Notes under the pieces: model-generated
The model's database searches: none
What the model saw: the letters and a program-made list of their open reading frames with translations, nothing else
What the model was told of the DNA's origin: nothing
Made by a program: the position numbers and the translations under genes
In this document: in pieces, positions 1 to 7,738 of the stretch
How positions within the stretch are numbered: the first letter of the stretch is position 1
Layout: each line of letters begins with the position of its first letter
NCBI GenBank assembly: GCA_042570305.1
Contig: JBHPGP010000006.1
Span: forward strand, 4,242 to 49,010
Source: Candidatus Omnitrophota bacterium
GTDB lineage: Bacteria > Omnitrophota > Gorgyraeia > Gygaellales > JAHJCI01
Direction of reading: 5' to 3'
DNA: 44,769 nt

Positions 1-130
1 GGCTGATTAGAATATCCAGCTTCTTCTCCATGGCACTCAACTGCTCTTGCACTTTATTAATGAAGCTAGCTATACCTGGTTCATCCTGCGATGCGACTAA
101 TAAACTTTTACGCTTAAAAATTTTTTTCAT
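1..130 (-). CDS. 5' part of a hypothetical protein (runs off the left edge); first visible unit of the cassette array
   Basis: ATG at 130 with AGAGAGGG RBS; open frame MKKIFKRKSLLVASQDEPGIASFINKVQEQLSAMEKKLDILIS to the window edge (hand-translated, not in the ORF track). Confidence 0.75.
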   Translation of the reverse strand, partial: MKKIFKRKSLLVASQDEPGIASFINKVQEQLSAMEKKLDILIS

Positions 131-150
131 ATTACCCTCTCTTTTTGTCT

Positions 151-179
151 ACTCTAACACAAACAAAAACTAAATTCAA
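151..179 (-). promoter_or_regulatory. sigma70-like promoter in the repeat flank
   Basis: TTGAAT-17bp-TAGAGT on the minus strand, upstream of the ATG at 130; same module at 1549-1576 and 2504-2532. Confidence 0.55.
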
Positions 180-248
180 GCTACAAAAGAACCCTCTGCA
201 AGCCTGATTCCAGAGGGTCCAAACCTTTACCTTGGAACGGTTGAGTGA

Positions 249-647
249 TTACCGACCCATTGCCATCTTCTTAAAATTAGCTATGGCAGACTTATCTTCT
301 TCGGCTATCTGTGTAAAAGAAACTCCTAAGCGATACCAACCCTCACTTAATGCATTGTTATACTTCACCTCCCCTGTTATATGCATTGGCCTAGCTTCTT
401 CATATGCATCGGCATGAAGGTTGATTAAAGTAAATCTAATTAAAAGGGTAGTCAATGCAAGGATATTATAATTTGTCTTAATGGCCATTCCATTCTCGCT
501 TAAGTCTAACATCTTTGCAGGGAACTCTTTATCACCCATCCAGAGACTGATTTCTATAGGCTCACCCTGCCTATAAAGAAGAAAAAAATCAGCTTTTATC
601 CTTTTAGTTTTTCGTCTCTCAGCACTATTATTATATCTATCGGCCAA
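249..647 (-). CDS. PilZ-domain (c-di-GMP-binding) protein
   Basis: RxxxR (RRKTKR) and DxSxxG (DLSENG) motifs, C-terminal LGVSF; TTG start with GGAGG RBS. Confidence 0.85.
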   Translation of the reverse strand: MADRYNNSAERRKTKRIKADFFLLYRQGEPIEISLWMGDKEFPAKMLDLSENGMAIKTNYNILALTTLLIRFTLINLHADAYEEARPMHITGEVKYNNALSEGWYRLGVSFTQIAEEDKSAIANFKKMAMGR

Positions 648-672
648 GGCCCTTGCCTCCTCTTATTACCTA

Positions 673-702
673 ATTATACCACCGCAATCTCGAAGTTGAC
701 AA
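673..702 (-). promoter_or_regulatory. sigma70 promoter with extended -10
   Basis: TTGTCA-18bp-TATAAT with TGn before the -10; near-duplicate at 1065-1094. Confidence 0.7.
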
Positions 703-785
703 AGAAAAACTAAATTCAAGCCGCAAAAAAGCCCTCTGCAAGCCTGATTCCAGAGGGTCAAGAAATTAGAAACGTCCCCTATTTT

Positions 786-816
786 AAAAAACCCACCCTG
801 CTTTTGACAGGGTGGG
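786..816 (-). terminator. Intrinsic terminator after the cold-shock gene
   Basis: CCCACCCTG-7nt-CAGGGTGGG followed by T6 on the minus strand. Confidence 0.85.
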
Positions 817-837
817 CTGGATTGTATTGAAGCTAAG

Positions 838-1041
838 TTATAGTTTAACTACGTTTGTTGCCTGTGGGCCTTTTGGACCCTCTTCAACTTCAAATTCAAC
901 TGCTTGTCCTTCGGCTAAAGATTTAAAACCTTCGCCCTGGATCGCATTGTGATGAACAAAGCAATCTTTGCCACCATCATCTGGCGTTATAAACCCGTAA
1001 CCTTTCTCATTGCTGAACCACTTAACCTTTCCTTTTGCCAT
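838..1041 (-). CDS. cspA: Cold-shock protein (CspA family)
   Basis: GKVKWF, KGYGFI (RNP1), CFVH (RNP2), KGPQA; 67 aa; paralog identity not resolved. Confidence 0.96.
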
Positions 1042-1064
1042 TATTCGCTACCTCCTTCCCGCCT

Positions 1065-1094
1065 ATTATACCACCACAATCTCGAAATTAACAA
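1065..1094 (-). promoter_or_regulatory. sigma70 promoter with extended -10
   Basis: TTGTTA-18bp-TATAAT; nearly identical to 673-702. Confidence 0.65.
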
Positions 1095-1185
1095 AGAAAA
1101 TTACTCTGCAAGCCTGATTCCAGAGGGCCAAAACTTTCCTTCGTAACAACCACAATCATAACAAGTTCCGTAAAACGCCTGGGGT

Positions 1186-1518
1186 TTATTTATCTTTAAC
1201 CAATAAACAAAATTCTTTTGCAAGAGGCGCTATTTTCCCATCCTCATAAGGAAATTCTTTGCAGTAGGTTGGCTTTAGATTATAATCAACCTTGTGAATG
1301 GAGCATAATCCATCAGCAGTAAGAAAGGAGCAAGTACCATCATCGTAACTTGTATCAACTTTATATCCGGAAGGGAACTTCTTATCTTTCTTTAAGTGAT
1401 AAAACACTCCGCGTAACCTGAGAGACGCAATTCTTCTGGCTTCCTTTAAATCTACCCAAACGCCCTCTTGACAACAATACTCTCTCTGTGAACATTCCAA
1501 ACAGTTAATTTTCTTCAT
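1186..1518 (-). CDS. YkgJ-like CxxCxxCC zinc/iron-chelating protein
   Basis: CLECxxxxxCC, CSFL...LCSIH...KPTYCKEFP cysteine pattern. Confidence 0.8.
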   Translation of the reverse strand: MKKINCLECSQREYCCQEGVWVDLKEARRIASLRLRGVFYHLKKDKKFPSGYKVDTSYDDGTCSFLTADGLCSIHKVDYNLKPTYCKEFPYEDGKIAPLAKEFCLLVKDK

Positions 1519-1548
1519 TTTTCCTTACCCAAGCTGCTCCTTTACAAT

Positions 1549-1576
1549 ATTCTACCCCAAAAAAAACTAAATTCAA
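1549..1576 (-). promoter_or_regulatory. sigma70-like promoter in the repeat flank
   Basis: TTGAAT-16bp-TAGAAT. Confidence 0.55.
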
Positions 1577-1640
1577 GCTACAAAAGAACCCTCTGCAAGC
1601 CTGATTCCAGAGGGCCAAGAAATTATAACCGTCCCCTATT

Positions 1641-1994
1641 CTACATAGACCAGCCGGAAACTACGCCGTCTGTGAAAAAGACTGTTACGTTTTTCCCGTG
1701 GATTTTATATCCCCTGTTAAGAAGCAGATTGCCGCTGGCATTGATTTTATACCCTTTGTCAACAACCATATTTCCGCTTCTCACCAATTCTGATGTAGCG
1801 GTCTCTGAAACGTGTTTGCCTAATATTTTTTCTACTTCATATGTTTCCTTACCGCTTAATTCTTCAGTATCAACTGCCATATTCTCTGTCTCTTTAGGCT
1901 TCGAAACTGTTTCTTTATTAGTTTTACAGCCAGTCAAAGAAAAAACCAAGGCTATGCTTAGGCAAGTTACTAATTTTCTAAATATATTACCCAT
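1641..1994 (-). CDS. Putative lipoprotein
   Basis: Signal peptide with LTGC lipobox; GGAGG RBS; internal duplicated segment (SGN..V/L..GYKI twice). Confidence 0.7.
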   Translation of the reverse strand: MGNIFRKLVTCLSIALVFSLTGCKTNKETVSKPKETENMAVDTEELSGKETYEVEKILGKHVSETATSELVRSGNMVVDKGYKINASGNLLLNRGYKIHGKNVTVFFTDGVVSGWSM

Positions 1995-2060
1995 ATCCCC
2001 CTCCTTTAGTTAAAAAGCCAACCCCCACAAGGTCAATTCCAGAGGCCCGCCCATTTCCTT

Positions 2061-2228
2061 TAATGAGCAGATAACTTACGGAGCAAAGCGACGTAAGTTA
2101 TAGCAAAGCGTCTGCGAATTATCCCGAAGCTTATCCTCAAGGATAGGCCTTACCTCTACCTTTTAAGGGAAGGGCCTTAAGCTAAAATTGTCGCAGAGAA
2201 TTTTAGCTTGTTTAAGCAAGGGACAACT
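2061..2228. repeat. Family B folded palindromic element, copy 1 (168 bp)
   Basis: Nested stems GCAGA/TCTGC, TAACTTACG/CGTAAGTTA, TCCC/GGGA, GCTTA/TAAGC, GCTAAAATT/AATTTTAGC; other copies at 3146, 3984, 14406. Confidence 0.9.
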
Positions 2229-2249
2229 ACAGAAGAACAGAACCGTCCC

Positions 2250-2486
2250 CTATTCTAGGTCTTCGACAGAATCTTCTAAAACCCTAAGAACCTCTTTTGC
2301 CTTTTCAACATCTAGCTTATTAACTAATAACTTCGCTTGCCCCATGCCTAAAGATAAATGAGGACGCAAATTGGCGAGATCGTCTACAGAAACAATAGCC
2401 TCAATTCCTTTCTCGGTAAGGAGACCTTTTGCCGATTCAGCCTCATGCCTATGAAAGAATGTCTTAATATGGACTAAATCTGCCAC
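2250..2486 (-). CDS. DUF2007-like small protein (putative signal-transducing family)
   Basis: EAESAKGLL...GIEA...LLV...DVEKAKEVL pattern; GTG start with AGGAG RBS. Confidence 0.7.
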   Translation of the reverse strand: MADLVHIKTFFHRHEAESAKGLLTEKGIEAIVSVDDLANLRPHLSLGMGQAKLLVNKLDVEKAKEVLRVLEDSVEDLE

Positions 2487-2503
2487 TATTGCTCCTTTGC
2501 CCT

Positions 2504-2532
2504 ATTCTACCCCAAACAAAAACTAAATTCAA
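2504..2532 (-). promoter_or_regulatory. sigma70-like promoter in the repeat flank
   Basis: TTGAAT-17bp-TAGAAT. Confidence 0.6.
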
Positions 2533-2673
2533 TCAACAAAAAAGCCCGCCTATACTAGACTGGACTTTTTCTATTACTGAATCATCCTGAGCGAAGCGAA
2601 GGACCTCTGCAAGTTCAATTCCAGAGGGCCCACCCATTTTCCTTGTAACAACTGTAAAAATCAGAAACGTCCC

Positions 2674-3066
2674 CTACTCTACTATTTCAACATCTTCGAC
2701 TCTAAAATGCTCATCTAGCCATAATGCAAGTATCTTCTTTACTGGAAATTTCCACGCAGTAATAACCTTTACGGCATTACGCAAATGTTCTTTTTGCACA
2801 AATTCATTCTCAGGATTACCTGCACAATCATAGTGTGCCACAATGGCGATAATTTGTGAATTATGTTTCTCTACAGAAATTTCTACTTTTTTCTTTAAAA
2901 GTTCAATTGTGTTCGTATCTTGACCTTCCGATAATATTTTATTAGGTCCTGGTTCTGTAATCATATCAACATAATCAACTTTAAAACTTTTCTCTATATA
3001 TTCTACGACTGGTTTTTGAACACGTCCATCTATGCAATTTATAGCCGTAGCGAATTCTTTAGCCAT
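2674..3066 (-). CDS. Putative beta-class-like carbonic anhydrase
   Basis: CIDGR (CxDxR) and HYDCAG (HxxC) Zn ligands; start moved to ATG 3066 (AAGGA RBS) because the longer ORF reads through repeat A. Confidence 0.75.
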   Translation of the reverse strand: MAKEFATAINCIDGRVQKPVVEYIEKSFKVDYVDMITEPGPNKILSEGQDTNTIELLKKKVEISVEKHNSQIIAIVAHYDCAGNPENEFVQKEHLRNAVKVITAWKFPVKKILALWLDEHFRVEDVEIVE

Positions 3067-3145
3067 ATATTTATCCTTTCTGGTATAATTTACTATAAAA
3101 CAAAGCCCTCTGCAAGCCTGATTCCAGAGGGCCAAACCCCATCCC

Positions 3146-3313
3146 TAATGAGCAGATAACTTACGGAGCAAAGCGACGTAAGTTATAGCGCAGCGTCTGC
3201 GAATTATCCCGAAGCTTATCCTCAAGGATAGGCCTTACCTCTACCTTTTAAGGGAAGGGCCTTAAGCTAAAATTGTCGCAGAGAATTTTAGCTTGTTTAA
3301 GCAAGGGACAACT
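3146..3313. repeat. Family B folded palindromic element, copy 2 (168 bp)
   Basis: Near-identical to 2061-2228 (GCAAAGC loop is GCGCAGC here). Confidence 0.9.
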
Positions 3314-3332
3314 ACAGAAGAACAGAACCGTC

Positions 3333-3662
3333 CTATATTTTGCAACTGCATTTCTTGCTCTCTAATATTTTCTTCTGTCTTTTGTGAGAGTCTATGAATA
3401 TATTCTGTTTTTTAGAGCCAGTAGCAAGCTTGCTGTTAAGATTACTATAATGATTATACCCCCTGCCTTGCATTTCTTTAATGAGTTTTTGATGTCTTGT
3501 ATACAAAGCTGCTAATTTGTTTCTCCATCTAAGGGTCTCTGGGTGCTTAGAGTATCCTTTTTTATTCTTGGTTAAAACAGACCATATAGCGTGCAATTCT
3601 TTATGTTCGCCAAGAAGATGGTTACGGCAAAGTTTTTTTGGAGAAATATCCCAGATTCTCAT
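3333..3662 (-). CDS. Pyrimidine-dimer DNA glycosylase / T4 endonuclease V-like protein
   Basis: MRIW...LCRNHLLGEHKELH...HPETLRW...L..RH..LIKEM..RGY.H; start moved to ATG 3662. Confidence 0.8.
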   Translation of the reverse strand: MRIWDISPKKLCRNHLLGEHKELHAIWSVLTKNKKGYSKHPETLRWRNKLAALYTRHQKLIKEMQGRGYNHYSNLNSKLATGSKKQNIFIDSHKRQKKILESKKCSCKI

Positions 3663-3762
3663 AATTCTATTCCTTATTTTTGAAAAAGGAAACCCTCTGC
3701 AAGCCTGATTCCAGAGGGCGCTTGGGAACACCCTGCCGATTGGCTCAAAGGGTGTCCCTAAT

Positions 3763-3909
3763 TTATTTTCTTTTCTTCTTGCCTAAAAAATAACCTAAAA
3801 TTCCACTGAGAAAAGCAATACCGACCATAGTTAATATTTGACAAAATGGGCAGATTTGAGTTGTACTACATTTACATAATTCCAATAATGGGCTAAGAAT
3901 ACACATCAT
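3763..3909 (-). CDS. Unannotated 48-aa Cys-rich single-pass membrane protein
   Basis: Hand translation MMCILSPLLELCKCSTTQICPFCQILTMVGIAFLSGILGYFLGKKKRK; GAGGAGG RBS; fills the interval between repeats A8 and A9. Confidence 0.7.
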   Translation of the reverse strand: MMCILSPLLELCKCSTTQICPFCQILTMVGIAFLSGILGYFLGKKKRK

Positions 3910-3983
3910 TCCTCCTCTGACCCTACTCTCACCCCGCAAAATCTATCTACACGGTCAATTCCAGAGGGCCCGCCCATTTCCTT

Positions 3984-4105
3984 TAATGAGCAGATAACTT
4001 ACGGAGCAAAGCGACGTAAATTATAGCGCAGCGTCTGCGAATTATCCCGAAGCTTAAGCTAAAATTGTCGCAGAGAATTTTAGCTTGTTTAAGCAAGGGG
4101 CAACT
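3984..4105. repeat. Family B folded element, copy 3 (46-bp internal deletion)
   Basis: Same ends as copies 1 and 2; lacks two internal hairpins between CTTA direct repeats. Confidence 0.9.
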
Positions 4106-4141
4106 ACAGAAAAACAGAACCGTCCCCTATTCTATTAGATT

Positions 4142-4753
4142 TCATTTATTTTCTAACTTAACTATATATTTTTTTACCTTCTTGGAAGAATATCTCAAAG
4201 CCTCAATAATTTCCTTAACTCTCGGTTCAGCTTCTTTATTCTTATCAACTATGACTCGCAACGCCTGGGAACCCAAAGACAATCGAACTATAAGTGACTC
4301 CGTTTTCCGCTGTATTGCATTGAATGTCTTAATATCATCCAATAATATCTGATTTTCCTTAATCATTTTATAAAGAAATTTATCCATCTTCTTCAATTTG
4401 TTGATAGAAAAACTTGTTTTACTCTTGGCTTGTATAAAATTTATAATATCCTGCAGATTTGCTACTTCTTTCCTATTTTTGACGGCGTCTTCACGTCTAC
4501 TGTATAGTTTAGTCTGTTTCAATCTCTCCTTTAAATATTTTATATAGACTTTACATAAATTATCCCACGTAACTAGAACCTTCTCACCTTTGCTTATATT
4601 CTTCTTGCTTTTCTTTGAAAGAAGCAATCGTTCGGTCTTATCAAGCTTTGATGAGATATCTCTCAGCACTTTCAAAAGAATAGTTTGCTGCTTCCGCGAA
4701 CTTTTTTTACTTAATATGTGAGAAATTATTGTTGCTGCTGTAGAAATTGGCAT
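4142..4753 (-). CDS. Hypothetical basic, helical protein
   Basis: 203-aa ORF, Lys-rich, no recognised motif; stop lies about 10 bp from a GGGGACGG motif. Confidence 0.55.
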   Translation of the reverse strand: MPISTAATIISHILSKKSSRKQQTILLKVLRDISSKLDKTERLLLSKKSKKNISKGEKVLVTWDNLCKVYIKYLKERLKQTKLYSRREDAVKNRKEVANLQDIINFIQAKSKTSFSINKLKKMDKFLYKMIKENQILLDDIKTFNAIQRKTESLIVRLSLGSQALRVIVDKNKEAEPRVKEIIEALRYSSKKVKKYIVKLENK

Positions 4754-4820
4754 GTTGTGAAGGTGGGGTCGAATTTATTTTTCTCAAAAATACTTTTGTG
4801 TCTAAATTCCCGGAATTCTT

Positions 4821-5000
4821 TTAGGATTTTTGTTTTTCCTGAACAGTATAAAATGAAGCGGAAAATTGAGTCGGTAATGTAGCAGAAGAATTGAAATATT
4901 TGTTTTCAAACATCTTTTCTTGAAAACTCTGATGATTTTTTTTGTGATCTAACTTGGAACCATTTCTACTGTTCTGAATAGACACTTTTTTTACTTTCAT
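4821..5000 (-). CDS. Possible 59-aa hypothetical protein coupled to the HAD gene
   Basis: ATGA overlap with the stop at 4997, GGAGG RBS at 5006-5010; MKVKKVSIQNSRNGSK...QEKQKS (hand-translated). Confidence 0.4.
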   Translation of the reverse strand: MKVKKVSIQNSRNGSKLDHKKNHQSFQEKMFENKYFNSSATLPTQFSASFYTVQEKQKS

Positions 5001-5902
5001 TGTTCCCTCCTTAAAGCCTCAGGAAGATATCTTCTAATATATTTATTATATTGCGTAACGGACTGTCGACCATAATATATACCTTGAAACTTCATTTCTA
5101 AAAGTAATTTTATTATTCTATCTAACTCACTGCCTTCATTATAATCTGCTTTTGCAATAAAATCAACCCTTTCTGCAGACAGCAATTGTGTGCAAGTTCT
5201 TAAGCTTTCAGTTGTACCTTTATGAACCGCAATAGCAGAACCACCATTTTTCTTTGTTACAGTCATACATGGAACATCAGTTATTCCGTCGCCAATATAA
5301 ATTATGTTTTGAAATGGAATCTTTCTTTTCTGCTCAGGCATATAATTATTTATACTTTTATTCAAGTTCTCTATACCTTTATTAATTCTAAAAATGTATT
5401 GCGTTTTCATAGTATCATTGATGAGATTCTTAATAAAATCTGGTTTGCCATATTCATCATAATGATATTCTGAGGCAAAAATATTATAAAAATGTCTATA
5501 TATAGTTGTCTTTTCTATTATTTCTTTTAAACCAGAAGATATAATATAATGCCTCAAGATTATTCTACCTTTTGTCTTTCTTGCAACATATCTATTTATT
5601 CTTGTAAAGTAATTTCTTACTCCTCTATAATATCTTATATTTTCAGCAAGACTACTTAATACCGCGGATGTAAGAGGGAACTCTCTCCTATGGCACTGTT
5701 CAATCATTAATCTCATATACGTGGCGATCTCATCCGAATAGGTTTTAACTTTTTCTCTTCTTACTCTTCCCCAAAACCTTCTTCCTGTTATGCCTATTTG
5801 GGGTAATACAGTATATTCTTGCATAGGCTGAGGAGTCAAAGTTCCATCAAAGTCATATACGATTGCAAGAATTTTATGTTTGAATCTCTTTACTCTAAGC
5901 AT
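4997..5902 (-). CDS. HAD-superfamily hydrolase
   Basis: YDFDGTL (motif I), IISSG (II), K (III), YIGDGITD (IV). Confidence 0.85.
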   Translation of the reverse strand: MLRVKRFKHKILAIVYDFDGTLTPQPMQEYTVLPQIGITGRRFWGRVRREKVKTYSDEIATYMRLMIEQCHRREFPLTSAVLSSLAENIRYYRGVRNYFTRINRYVARKTKGRIILRHYIISSGLKEIIEKTTIYRHFYNIFASEYHYDEYGKPDFIKNLINDTMKTQYIFRINKGIENLNKSINNYMPEQKRKIPFQNIIYIGDGITDVPCMTVTKKNGGSAIAVHKGTTESLRTCTQLLSAERVDFIAKADYNEGSELDRIIKLLLEMKFQGIYYGRQSVTQYNKYIRRYLPEALRREQ

Positions 5903-5987
5903 AATTTTAACAATTATTCTGAATCTTTATCTTTTAAAAAAATAGGATTCGTTTTGTCTAAAACAGTTCTAGTTATATTTCCCTATG

Positions 5988-6416
5988 CTAATCAATATTC
6001 TGAGCAGTCAAAAATACGGCTTTTGATAAGGCATCGAAGAAGTGTTGGTATTCTTTCGGATCAGTAACGGCATTTATACCATGTTGCGCATTGGCTCTAA
6101 CTAAAAGCTGATTATCTCCTTTTGATCGTACTATAACTGTGATTTTTACGACTTGATATTGAATAAACTTGGCAGCCGAGACAATACCCAGTTCAAAATC
6201 TGCCTTATGAATTACAAAATCTAAATCTTGCAAGGTAGCCATAACACTGCGCAGCATTTTTTCTCTGTCAGAGGTATCGAAAGCTCGAGTCTGAACACTG
6301 CGTAATTTTAACTGATTTTCACTTAAATCCAGAATATGTACAGCTGGTGCAGTTGCACAACCAGAGAAAAAAACACTCATTAAAATAAGTGCGGTAATGC
6401 GAGCTTTATTTCTCAT
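5988..6416 (-). CDS. Lipoprotein, paralog of 6413-6976
   Basis: FSGC lipobox; QTRAFDT...ATLQDLDF...LG resembles neighbour QIRQYDT...LLQDMGF...LG; both end in DP..Y..FF..LSKA.FL. Confidence 0.75.
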   Translation of the reverse strand: MRNKARITALILMSVFFSGCATAPAVHILDLSENQLKLRSVQTRAFDTSDREKMLRSVMATLQDLDFVIHKADFELGIVSAAKFIQYQVVKITVIVRSKGDNQLLVRANAQHGINAVTDPKEYQHFFDALSKAVFLTAQNID

Positions 6417-7560: not shown

Positions 7561-7738
7561 TAGCGGGGTTTTAGGGTTTTTGGTGAAGAGCACAATTAGA
7601 AACTTTTTGACAAAGGTTGGCAAGGAATTACAGCGAAATGAAGGTCGCTCTGCTCGAAAGTCGTGCTGTAATGAGCTGTAAACCGCAGCCAACGGCAAAA
7701 AGTTTCGTGCTCGAGGCAAAAAGCCTAAAATCTGACTA
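7561..7738. repeat. Family C long interrupted palindrome, copy 1
   Basis: TTTTAGG/CCTAAAA, GAGCAC/GTGCTC, AAACTTTTTG/CAAAAAGTTT, GTTGGC/GCCAAC, TTACAGC/GCTGTAA; second copy at 40876-41042. Confidence 0.85.

Follow-up and report, generated by a model that had tools for sequence, protein, structure and literature searches.

The stretch of DNA analysed here (the window, 44,769 nucleotides, G000:C6:4242-49010) comes from a genome of Candidatus Omnitrophota (G000, an assembly of 1.27 Mb in 66 contigs, 74% complete), and its left end carries an array of small genes separated by copies of a short hairpin repeat, CCCTCTG-N12-CAGAGGG. Two other genomes recur in the comparisons below: G008, the sister genome, and G346, a member of a different family within the class. 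Each of the eight intervals between the repeat copies contains one open reading frame (ORF) on the minus strand, in agreement with the original prediction of one small gene per interval, to which it should be added that three of the intervals also hold an insert of ~190 nt. Six of the gene names proposed at that time are confirmed by Pfam (PilZ, CSD, CxxCxxCC for the YkgJ-like gene, DUF2007, Pro_CA_2, and Pyr_excise), and no Pfam family was found for the lipoprotein-like ORF of 117 aa or for the ORFs of 48 and 203 aa. The coordinates of all these features are collected in Table 1.

With up to two mismatches allowed, the repeat pattern is matched seven times in the window, always on the plus strand (at 192, 732, 1102, 1589, 2603, 3106, and 3693), compared to a chance expectation of 0.13, and none of 100 shuffled sequences reached seven matches. 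Two half copies, found by a repeat search in the registers 2024-2062 and 3946-3984, retain only an arm and the core ...TCAATTCCAGAGG. The family comprises nine co-oriented copies at spacings of 540, 370, 487, 432, 582, 503, 587, and 250 bp, and the sequence ATTCCAGAGG is present in all nine. The number, orientation, and spacing of the copies (nine, 250-587 bp apart) are thus as described earlier, although only seven of them are complete hairpins. The array is also AT-richer than its surroundings, as had been claimed, with a G+C content of 0.39 in positions 1-4000 and 0.30-0.33 in positions 4001-6000, whereas the rest of the window is at 0.44-0.52.

Table 1. Features of the array and related elements. 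Positions are those of the window unless a genome, contig, or locus is given; R1 is the covariance model of the hairpin.
Feature	Position	Strand	Remarks
Full hairpin copy	192..217	-	Between PilZ and zinc-finger genes; 0 mismatches; R1 54.6 bits
PilZ-domain gene, 132 aa	249..647	-	PF07238, E 6.9e-10
Promoter boxes TTGTCA-18-TATAAT	702..673	-	Follow copy 732..757, before PilZ; 11/12 consensus positions matched
Full hairpin copy	732..757	-	Between Csp and PilZ genes; 0 mismatches
Cold-shock protein (Csp) gene, 67 aa	838..1041	-	PF00313, E 8.8e-31; own terminator-like hairpin 792-811
Promoter boxes TTGTTA-18-TATAAT	1094..1065	-	Follow copy 1102..1127, before Csp
Hairpin copy, gene-strand 3' arm damaged (CAGAGTA)	1102..1127	-	Between YkgJ-like and Csp genes; 2 mismatches
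YkgJ-like CxxCxxCC gene, 110 aa	1186..1518	-	Pfam
Promoter boxes TTGAAT-16-TAGAAT	1576..1549	-	Follow copy 1589..1614
Full hairpin copy	1589..1614	-	Between lipoprotein and YkgJ-like genes; RNA fold -15.5 kcal/mol, then U-run
Lipoprotein-like gene, 117 aa	1641..1994	-	ORF; no Pfam family
Half copy	2021..2046	-	Gene-strand 5' arm and loop start kept, 3' arm degenerate; repeat family D2
Composite hairpin-rich insert, ~190 nt	2061..2254; 3146-3339; ~3984-4134	.	Repeat families D3-D6; three intervals
DUF2007 gene, 78 aa	2250..2486	-	PF09413
Element of ~58-80 nt	~2520-2602; L049:2007-2090; L051:738-810; G000:C19:21081-21234		
Hairpin copy, loop variant GAATTGAACTTG	2603..2628	-	~58-nt insertion directly after, replacing T-run
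Pro_CA_2 (putative carbonic anhydrase) gene, 130 aa	2674..3066	-	E 1.5e-48
Full hairpin copy	3106..3131	-	Upstream of Pro_CA_2 gene; L049 homology stops at 5' edge of copy
Pyrimidine-dimer DNA glycosylase gene, 109 aa	3333..3662	-	PF03013, E 1.5e-27; from ATG at 3662
Full hairpin copy	3693..3718	-	Upstream of pyrimidine-dimer glycosylase gene
REP element of a different family, GGGACACCC...GGGTGTCCC	3724..3760	.	12 copies in G000 on 8 contigs
48-aa membrane protein gene	3763..3909	-	ORF; homolog in G008:C146 adjoins Csp gene
Half copy	3943..3968	-	Upstream of 48-aa membrane gene; repeat family D2
203-aa gene, no known family	4142..4753	-	Most upstream unit with trailer
Second REP-like family	G000:C8:39352, C13, C30, C55; L049:1208; L030 near gene-strand start	- (in L030)	

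Read on the gene (minus) strand, the repeat lies within a module of ~55 nt, GGGCCCTCTG-loop-TTGCAGAGGG-TTTTTGTTTGGGGTAGAATA-RBS-ATG (RBS, ribosome-binding site). A gene is followed by a trailer that starts at or in its stop codon (...TAGGGGACGGTTCTG...), then, in some copies only, by AAGGAAATGGGTGGGCC, and after that by the hairpin CCCTCTGGAATCAGGCTTGCAGAGGG, a T-run, and a promoter-like stretch that leads to the Shine-Dalgarno sequence and the start codon of the next gene. The commonest form in the sister genome and in metagenome contigs is shorter and consists of hairpin-TTTTTGTTTGGGGTAGAATA-RBS-ATG. The RNA of the gene strand folds into a stem of 9-10 bp (-15.5 to -18.7 kcal/mol) with a U-run immediately after it; the opposite strand yields -11.9 kcal/mol and is without a U-run. 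As far as a predicted fold can tell, this is the anatomy of an intrinsic terminator.

The hairpin is also joined to promoter-like boxes. The hexamer TTGCAG spans the loop and the 3' arm, with three bases from the end of the former and three from the start of the latter. Of 42 copies, 16 have a -10-like hexamer (at least five of six matches to TATAAT with A2 and T6, seen as TAGAAT or TAAAAT) exactly 17 nt after TTGCAG, and 22 have one at 16-18 nt. At 18 of the other 19 spacings tested (8-29 nt) the count is 0-1, and at a spacing of 12 it is three. By consensus only, the -35 and -10 hexamers are thus 16-18 nt apart and upstream of an RBS and a start codon, as in a sigma-70 promoter. In the copies without a box at 16-18 nt that were inspected in the window, as well as in loci L030, L041, L052, and L054, another complete promoter is found farther downstream.

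The module is not confined to the array. A covariance model of the hairpin, R1, built from 35 distinct copies and applied with a threshold of E <= 0.001 (the E-values being rough), finds 13 matches in the 1.27 Mb of G000, eight of them on C6 and five elsewhere. Single sites with the same arms (C2:37332, C12:4201, C12:7985, and C22:18212) are each located between co-directional genes and precede one of them, and the TTGCAG-16/17-TAnAnT geometry is present at three of these four, the exception being C12:7985. R1 also matches 49 of the 151 sampled genomes of the class, in most of them at one or two sites and in some as small clusters. A repeat scattered singly was what the original prediction had named as an argument against itself, and this has in part come true. 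Among the best-scoring foreign matches that were fetched, 13 of 14 contain the whole module: CCCTCTG, a loop rich in A and T in which TGATATAATATG (an extended -10) is frequent, TTGCAGAGGG, the T-run, and a correctly spaced TAGAAT or TAAAAT. G346 has an array of its own, in which eight co-oriented copies that keep the arms and the T-run but have another loop (TGATAATATATTG) separate unrelated genes encoding a serpin, a ZIP transporter, TPR proteins, membrane proteins, and a PAS protein. An exact scan of genome contigs for the repeat returned the sister genome only, on contigs that bear the title Candidatus Omnitrophota, plus two matches in unrelated phyla that were taken for chance. No match was found in viral contigs, and no Rfam family covers the repeat or the ~190-nt insert. 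An origin of the repeat in tRNA or tmRNA fragments was considered and rejected, ARAGORN having found no such genes in the window or in the G346 loci.

Across 68 matches in the loci searched, changes on both sides are seen in four of the seven stem pairs, and 97.9% of the cells pair, a level reached in none of 500 shuffles. Compensated arms are directly visible as CCCTCCG/CGGAGGG and CCCTTTG/CAAAGGG. To judge from these both-sided changes, pairing of the stem is under selection, and a folded strand fits them better than two protein half-sites would. In turn, the same genes recur behind the module in distant genomes. It precedes Pro_CA_2 homologs in G000, L049, L051, and G436 (L098), a 319-aa permease gene in G008, L044/L045, and G380 (L101), a gene for a 78-aa membrane protein in G346 and G271 (L104), a PAS protein gene in L052 and G346, a PEBP-like gene in G000 (C12) and G008 (C64), and a TsaA-like gene, singly on C22 of G000 and within an array in L044; a DUF481-like gene is also among the homologous genes so preceded. 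Such a recurring association is the behaviour of a cis element in the control region of a gene, and the module appears to be old, class-wide, and placed upstream of a recurring set of small genes.

The order of the units is, by comparison, poorly conserved. Seven gene families are present in at least two of 12 repeat-bearing loci, for which non-overlapping ORFs were taken mechanically, and none of the 14 comparable neighbour pairs is shared among the arrays. The earlier expectation that content and order would differ between relatives is thereby confirmed for all the relatives that bear the repeat. The Pro_CA_2 gene is flanked in G000 by the glycosylase and DUF2007 genes and in L049, in a unit 92% identical to that of G000, by genes of 157 and 165 aa; in L051, it precedes an 84-aa gene that in G000 lies six units farther along. 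Five units separate the 48-aa gene from the Csp gene in G000, whereas their homologs are adjacent in a hairpin-free island of the sister genome. Colinearity with contigs of the sister genome, at 65-81% identity, extends over carB and the ~15 kb past it; the sister-genome contig ends inside carB. The YkgJ-like ORF (1186-1526) is 86-90% identical at the nucleotide level to copies in three other genera, in which carB is at 68-78%; the likeness ends within ~8 nt of the ORF, and the flanks are unrelated. These identities point to lateral exchange, probably of the YkgJ-like ORF alone. In G009, the YkgJ-like gene is flanked by a second repeat, present in 1-2 copies per genome only. The hairpin-free island of the sister genome (L031, G008:C146) consists of small co-oriented genes encoding a Spy-like protein, a 154-aa protein, a 57-aa membrane protein, Csp, a 158-aa protein, and PilZ. 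A terminator, CCCACCTTG...CAGGGTGGG, follows two different genes in this island and is also found after the Csp gene of the window, at 792-811.

We consider it probable that the repeat is the core of a punctuation module of ~55 nt that fuses an intrinsic terminator to a sigma-70 promoter, and the array is best read as a shuffling-prone cluster of self-contained, single-gene transcription units. This interpretation proceeds from what is observed of the module, namely its anatomy, the covariation of its pairs, the spacing of its promoter boxes, its position, and its distribution, as well as from the differing neighbours in relatives. That the module actually ends and starts transcription, and that recombination between modules is the cause of the shuffling, we infer from these features. 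The transcript of the upstream gene would fold the hairpin and stop at the U-run, and RNA polymerase would restart from the -35 box TTGCAG, at the end of the loop and the start of the 3' arm, and the -10 box TAGAAT, 17 nt further on. In the form found in other families, the loop would add an extended -10 (TGATATAAT), with its TG supplied by the end of the 5' arm, to serve a second promoter. We propose that the sequence of the stem is frozen because it must both pair and spell promoter boxes. In this genus, a flexible, AT-rich stretch downstream of carB holds many such single-gene units in tandem, and the junction of ~50 nt that they share could supply homology, so that recombination between copies would reshuffle, delete, and add units. 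Unequal exchange, as well as replacement of units by DNA from relatives, might both proceed via this junction.

Several points weigh against such a reading. The 42 copies used for the promoter spacing were picked for their T-run and many of them are interrelated, so that the counts describe a geometry rather than independent events, and the alignment used for covariation was fitted to the model, which favours pairing. The consensus scan for terminators skipped the hairpin, because its loop of 12 (12-13, longer than usual) exceeds the limit of 8 set in that scan. A conventional terminator already precedes the hairpin at the Csp unit and at units of G346, which means that the hairpin is not needed there as the sole terminator. 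In three copies (window 2603, L049, and L051), the T-run is absent through an insertion. A stem that is nearly invariant across families is unusual for terminators, and a protein could be reading it instead. Additionally, short-read assemblies break at repeats, and the ends of several contigs fall within a copy, so some of the adjacencies may be choices of the assembly. The insertion that displaces the T-run is an element of ~58-80 nt (TCCTTCGCTTCGC...GGCGGGC), placed exactly after the 3' arm of the hairpin, and its appearance is that of a small mobile insertion with the hairpin as its target. The module itself lacks the hallmarks of a MITE (miniature inverted-repeat transposable element), in that its ends (TAGGGGACGG... 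and ...GGGGTAGAATA) are not inverted repeats and no target-site duplication was seen.

A different interpretation would make the module the place of exchange in a cassette system that lacks attC sites. Single-gene units carrying their own promoter and terminator halves would be cut and inserted at the 3' arm of the hairpin, either by an unlinked recombinase that reads hairpins or by RecA acting on the ~50 nt, and would belong to a pool exchanged between Omnitrophota. This trade would have left its traces in the conservation of the module throughout the class and in the YkgJ-like ORF, 86-90% identical in other genera. We regard this as possible but unlikely.

Somewhat more doubtful is the proposal closest to the original prediction, a site-specific platform on which the hairpin serves as a 10-6-10 recombination site (CCCTCTGGAA-TCAGGC-TTGCAGAGGG) and an unlinked recombinase moves single-gene units in the manner of an integron. 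The co-oriented single-gene units with a conserved repeat between them in AT-richer DNA would fit it, as would the fact that all the comparable adjacencies differ in relatives. As judged by eye in the cases compared, the 3' arm is the point where sequence that goes with the upstream gene (trailer, 5' arm, and loop) meets sequence that goes with the downstream gene (leader), and the arms can be extended to 10 bp around a variable centre of 6 nt. The transfer of the YkgJ-like ORF between genera, with unrelated flanks, also speaks for it. What is missing is the enzyme. Leftward extension, which had been suggested as the way to find it, yields eight further small co-oriented genes, which have no hairpin and only decayed remnants of the module, and beyond them a diverged repeat copy at C6:245-270, before a DUF481-like gene; no tyrosine, serine, or Y1 recombinase gene was found on C6, in a genome that is 74% complete and with an array that reaches the contig start. 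Of the two tyrosine recombinases of G000 (PF00589), one, next to topA on C3, is Xer-like, and the other, next to tadA on C29, is a phage-type integrase; no serine recombinase was found in this genome, and its three Y1 transposase genes are all located off C6. ORF inspection of the short array contigs of the sister genome revealed no recombinase, and the only two tyrosine recombinases of G008 are Xer-sized and lie on other contigs. A 189-aa tyrosine recombinase gene, comprising the catalytic domain only, does stand 2.7 kb before the first copy of the eight-copy array of G346. However, it shares that stretch (L096, G346:C4:118000-131500) with a 542-aa serine recombinase, four large unknown genes (400-794 aa), and a trypsin-like peptidase, and we read the stretch as a separate mobile island. 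Single copies before orthologous genes across families are better suited to a cis-regulatory element than to a recombination site. The only junction within a loop (L049, ~1205) is a truncated hairpin adjoined by a half copy from another REP family, described below. One DNA sequencing run (0.05 share of words) yielded fragments of Csp only, with zero joints and zero circles, and thus no evidence of circular units or empty sites. Of the capture platform originally envisaged, the concentration of the repeat at one locus and the variable content have been upheld, but nothing shows an enzyme inserting units singly. Enzyme-driven, integron-like capture by the array is therefore unlikely, although it retains some probability, given an incomplete genome and an array that runs up to the start of its contig.

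It is also improbable, and more so than either form of cassette exchange, that the repeat is the operator of a regulon, CCCTCTG-N12/13-CAGAGGG being bound over the promoter by a dimeric regulator, similarly to CIRCE and HrcA, and the array being a cluster of the regulon. The arms are near-invariant across families while the loop and flanks vary, the element overlaps the promoter boxes, and the same gene families bear it in distant genomes, all of which an operator would explain. Yet the changes on both sides of four of the seven pairs preserve pairing, and G-U pairs are tolerated on the gene strand, as expected of a folded strand and not of half-sites; the conserved T-run would have no role, and no candidate regulator was identified. 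An operator would nevertheless be compatible with the terminator-promoter module, as a layer added to it.

Far less probable is a family of repetitive extragenic palindromes (REPs) spread by a REP-associated Y1 transposase (RAYT). REPs sit after genes and can act as terminators, three Y1 transposase genes are present in G000, and so are at least two true REP families. One of these, GGGACACCC...GGGTGTCCC, has copies (C2:53375 and 53971) that flank the Y1 gene C2:53541-53876, forming a classical REP-RAYT pair. The array hairpin, on the other hand, flanks none of the three Y1 genes of G000 and has no copy within 900 nt of any of them. It is co-oriented with the genes and never forms inverted pairs, its copy number is low (the 13 model matches given above), and it is conserved before orthologous genes across families. 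The second REP-like family, AAATGGGGTCAGAATTATTTTT...AAAAATAATTCTGACCCCATTT, forms inverted pairs and is also found beside the C8 Y1 gene; it is the family whose half copy abuts the truncated hairpin of L049.

Finally, a sigma-54 promoter, in which loop and arms of the array copies would read TGGAAT-N5-TTGCA (GG-N10-GC), can hardly be entertained: the spacing is exact in the copies of this genus, where GGAAT and TTGCA are kept and the middle 5 nt vary, and rpoN is present together with one clear enhancer-binding protein gene, but the forms of other families lack the GG (CTGTGATATAATATGTTGCA) while keeping the arms, the T-run, and the -10 box, and there is neither room nor a conserved site for an upstream activator.

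Some other features of the region should be mentioned. The ~190-nt insert contains three or four different hairpins and is located in the trailers, and pieces of it are scattered through all 10 genomes of the family; it may be a cluster resembling bacterial interspersed mosaic elements (BIMEs) or a MITE. A dispersed repeat of ~165 nt at 7568-7734, just downstream of carB, matches eight contigs of the sister genome at 73-80% identity. Positions 4001-6000, with the lowest G+C content (0.30-0.33), comprise the 203-aa gene without a family, a 59-aa ORF, and a HAD-like gene of 301 aa, and a DNA search found no homolog of this part in the sister genome. The minus strand of 787-1177, which covers the Csp gene and the hairpin upstream of it, resembles the Rfam cspA thermoregulator at a sub-threshold score (71.1 bits vs. 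a cut-off of 78), and no other Rfam match came close to its threshold. A single N at G000:C6:4241, one base to the left of the window, breaks a 166-aa treble-clef zinc-finger gene that extends over its left edge.

If the terminator-promoter reading is true, a class of ultra-small uncultured bacteria ends one transcript and begins the next with one conserved element of ~55 nt, and in at least two lineages arrays of self-contained genes change their order faster than the surrounding genome. This would provide a simple model for the organisation of flexible gene pools that needs no integron. The element would be a ready-made, compact terminator-promoter part, and the covariance model R1 could serve as a marker for such arrays in metagenomes. 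Should a recombinase be involved after all, the arrays would represent a second kind of gene-cassette system. Titles and the opening parts of abstracts on integrons, gene cassettes, and intergenic or palindromic repeats in Omnitrophota (Omnitrophica) do not describe the element.

Among the known systems that the array resembles are integron arrays and clusters of attC sites lacking integron integrases (CALINs). Common to all of them are co-oriented, unrelated, mostly single-gene units with a conserved structured repeat after each gene, AT-richer DNA, a content that varies between close relatives, and repeats that are very similar within a genome. An attC site is defined by RYYYAAC and GTTRRRY at the ends of an imperfect palindrome of 57-141 nt. 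In contrast, these R''/R' boxes are found on neither strand of any of the nine intergenic modules, and there is no long imperfect palindrome, single-stranded DNA folding only into a hairpin of 7-9 bp; the earlier statement that the repeat is not attC is therefore correct. The units of the array, unlike integron cassettes, carry their own promoters, and the repeat also occurs singly before conserved genes throughout the class. Neither intI nor attI was found beside the array, the PF00589 matches of this 74% complete genome being those on C3 and C29.

The pdif sites recognised by Xer are dif-like, of the form 11-6-11, alternate in orientation, and reside on plasmids, whereas the sites in the array are direct repeats on a chromosome and bear no likeness to the dif consensus. 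The organisation of pdif modules on Acinetobacter plasmids, small modules between short inverted-repeat sites with the recombinase encoded elsewhere, as described (PMC6449649), is nevertheless similar. REPs and BIMEs with their RAYTs share with the module short, G+C-rich, extragenic hairpins after genes. They differ from it in that the array hairpin carries promoter boxes, flanks no Y1 gene, forms no inverted pairs, and is present in few copies. The Correia elements of Neisseria are repeated intergenic elements that give their neighbours terminator and promoter activity, which is a clear likeness to the module. They are MITEs with terminal inverted repeats, TA duplications, and hundreds of dispersed copies, whereas neither a terminal inverted repeat nor a target duplication was seen for the module. 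CIRCE, in the HrcA regulons, is a perfect inverted repeat with a spacer of ~9-13 nt, located at the promoters of a set of genes, conserved over a large distance, and active both as DNA and as an RNA hairpin. The module differs from it in sequence and gene set, is followed by a T-run, and has no known regulator. Phage morons, single genes of lower G+C content that stand side by side with their own promoter and terminator, resemble the units of the array, but no phage genes surround the latter, and all its units share one junction element. On this comparison, the feature is not an integron and is best seen as a variant of the repeated intergenic control elements, one that in addition gives structure to an array of fast-changing gene order and content.

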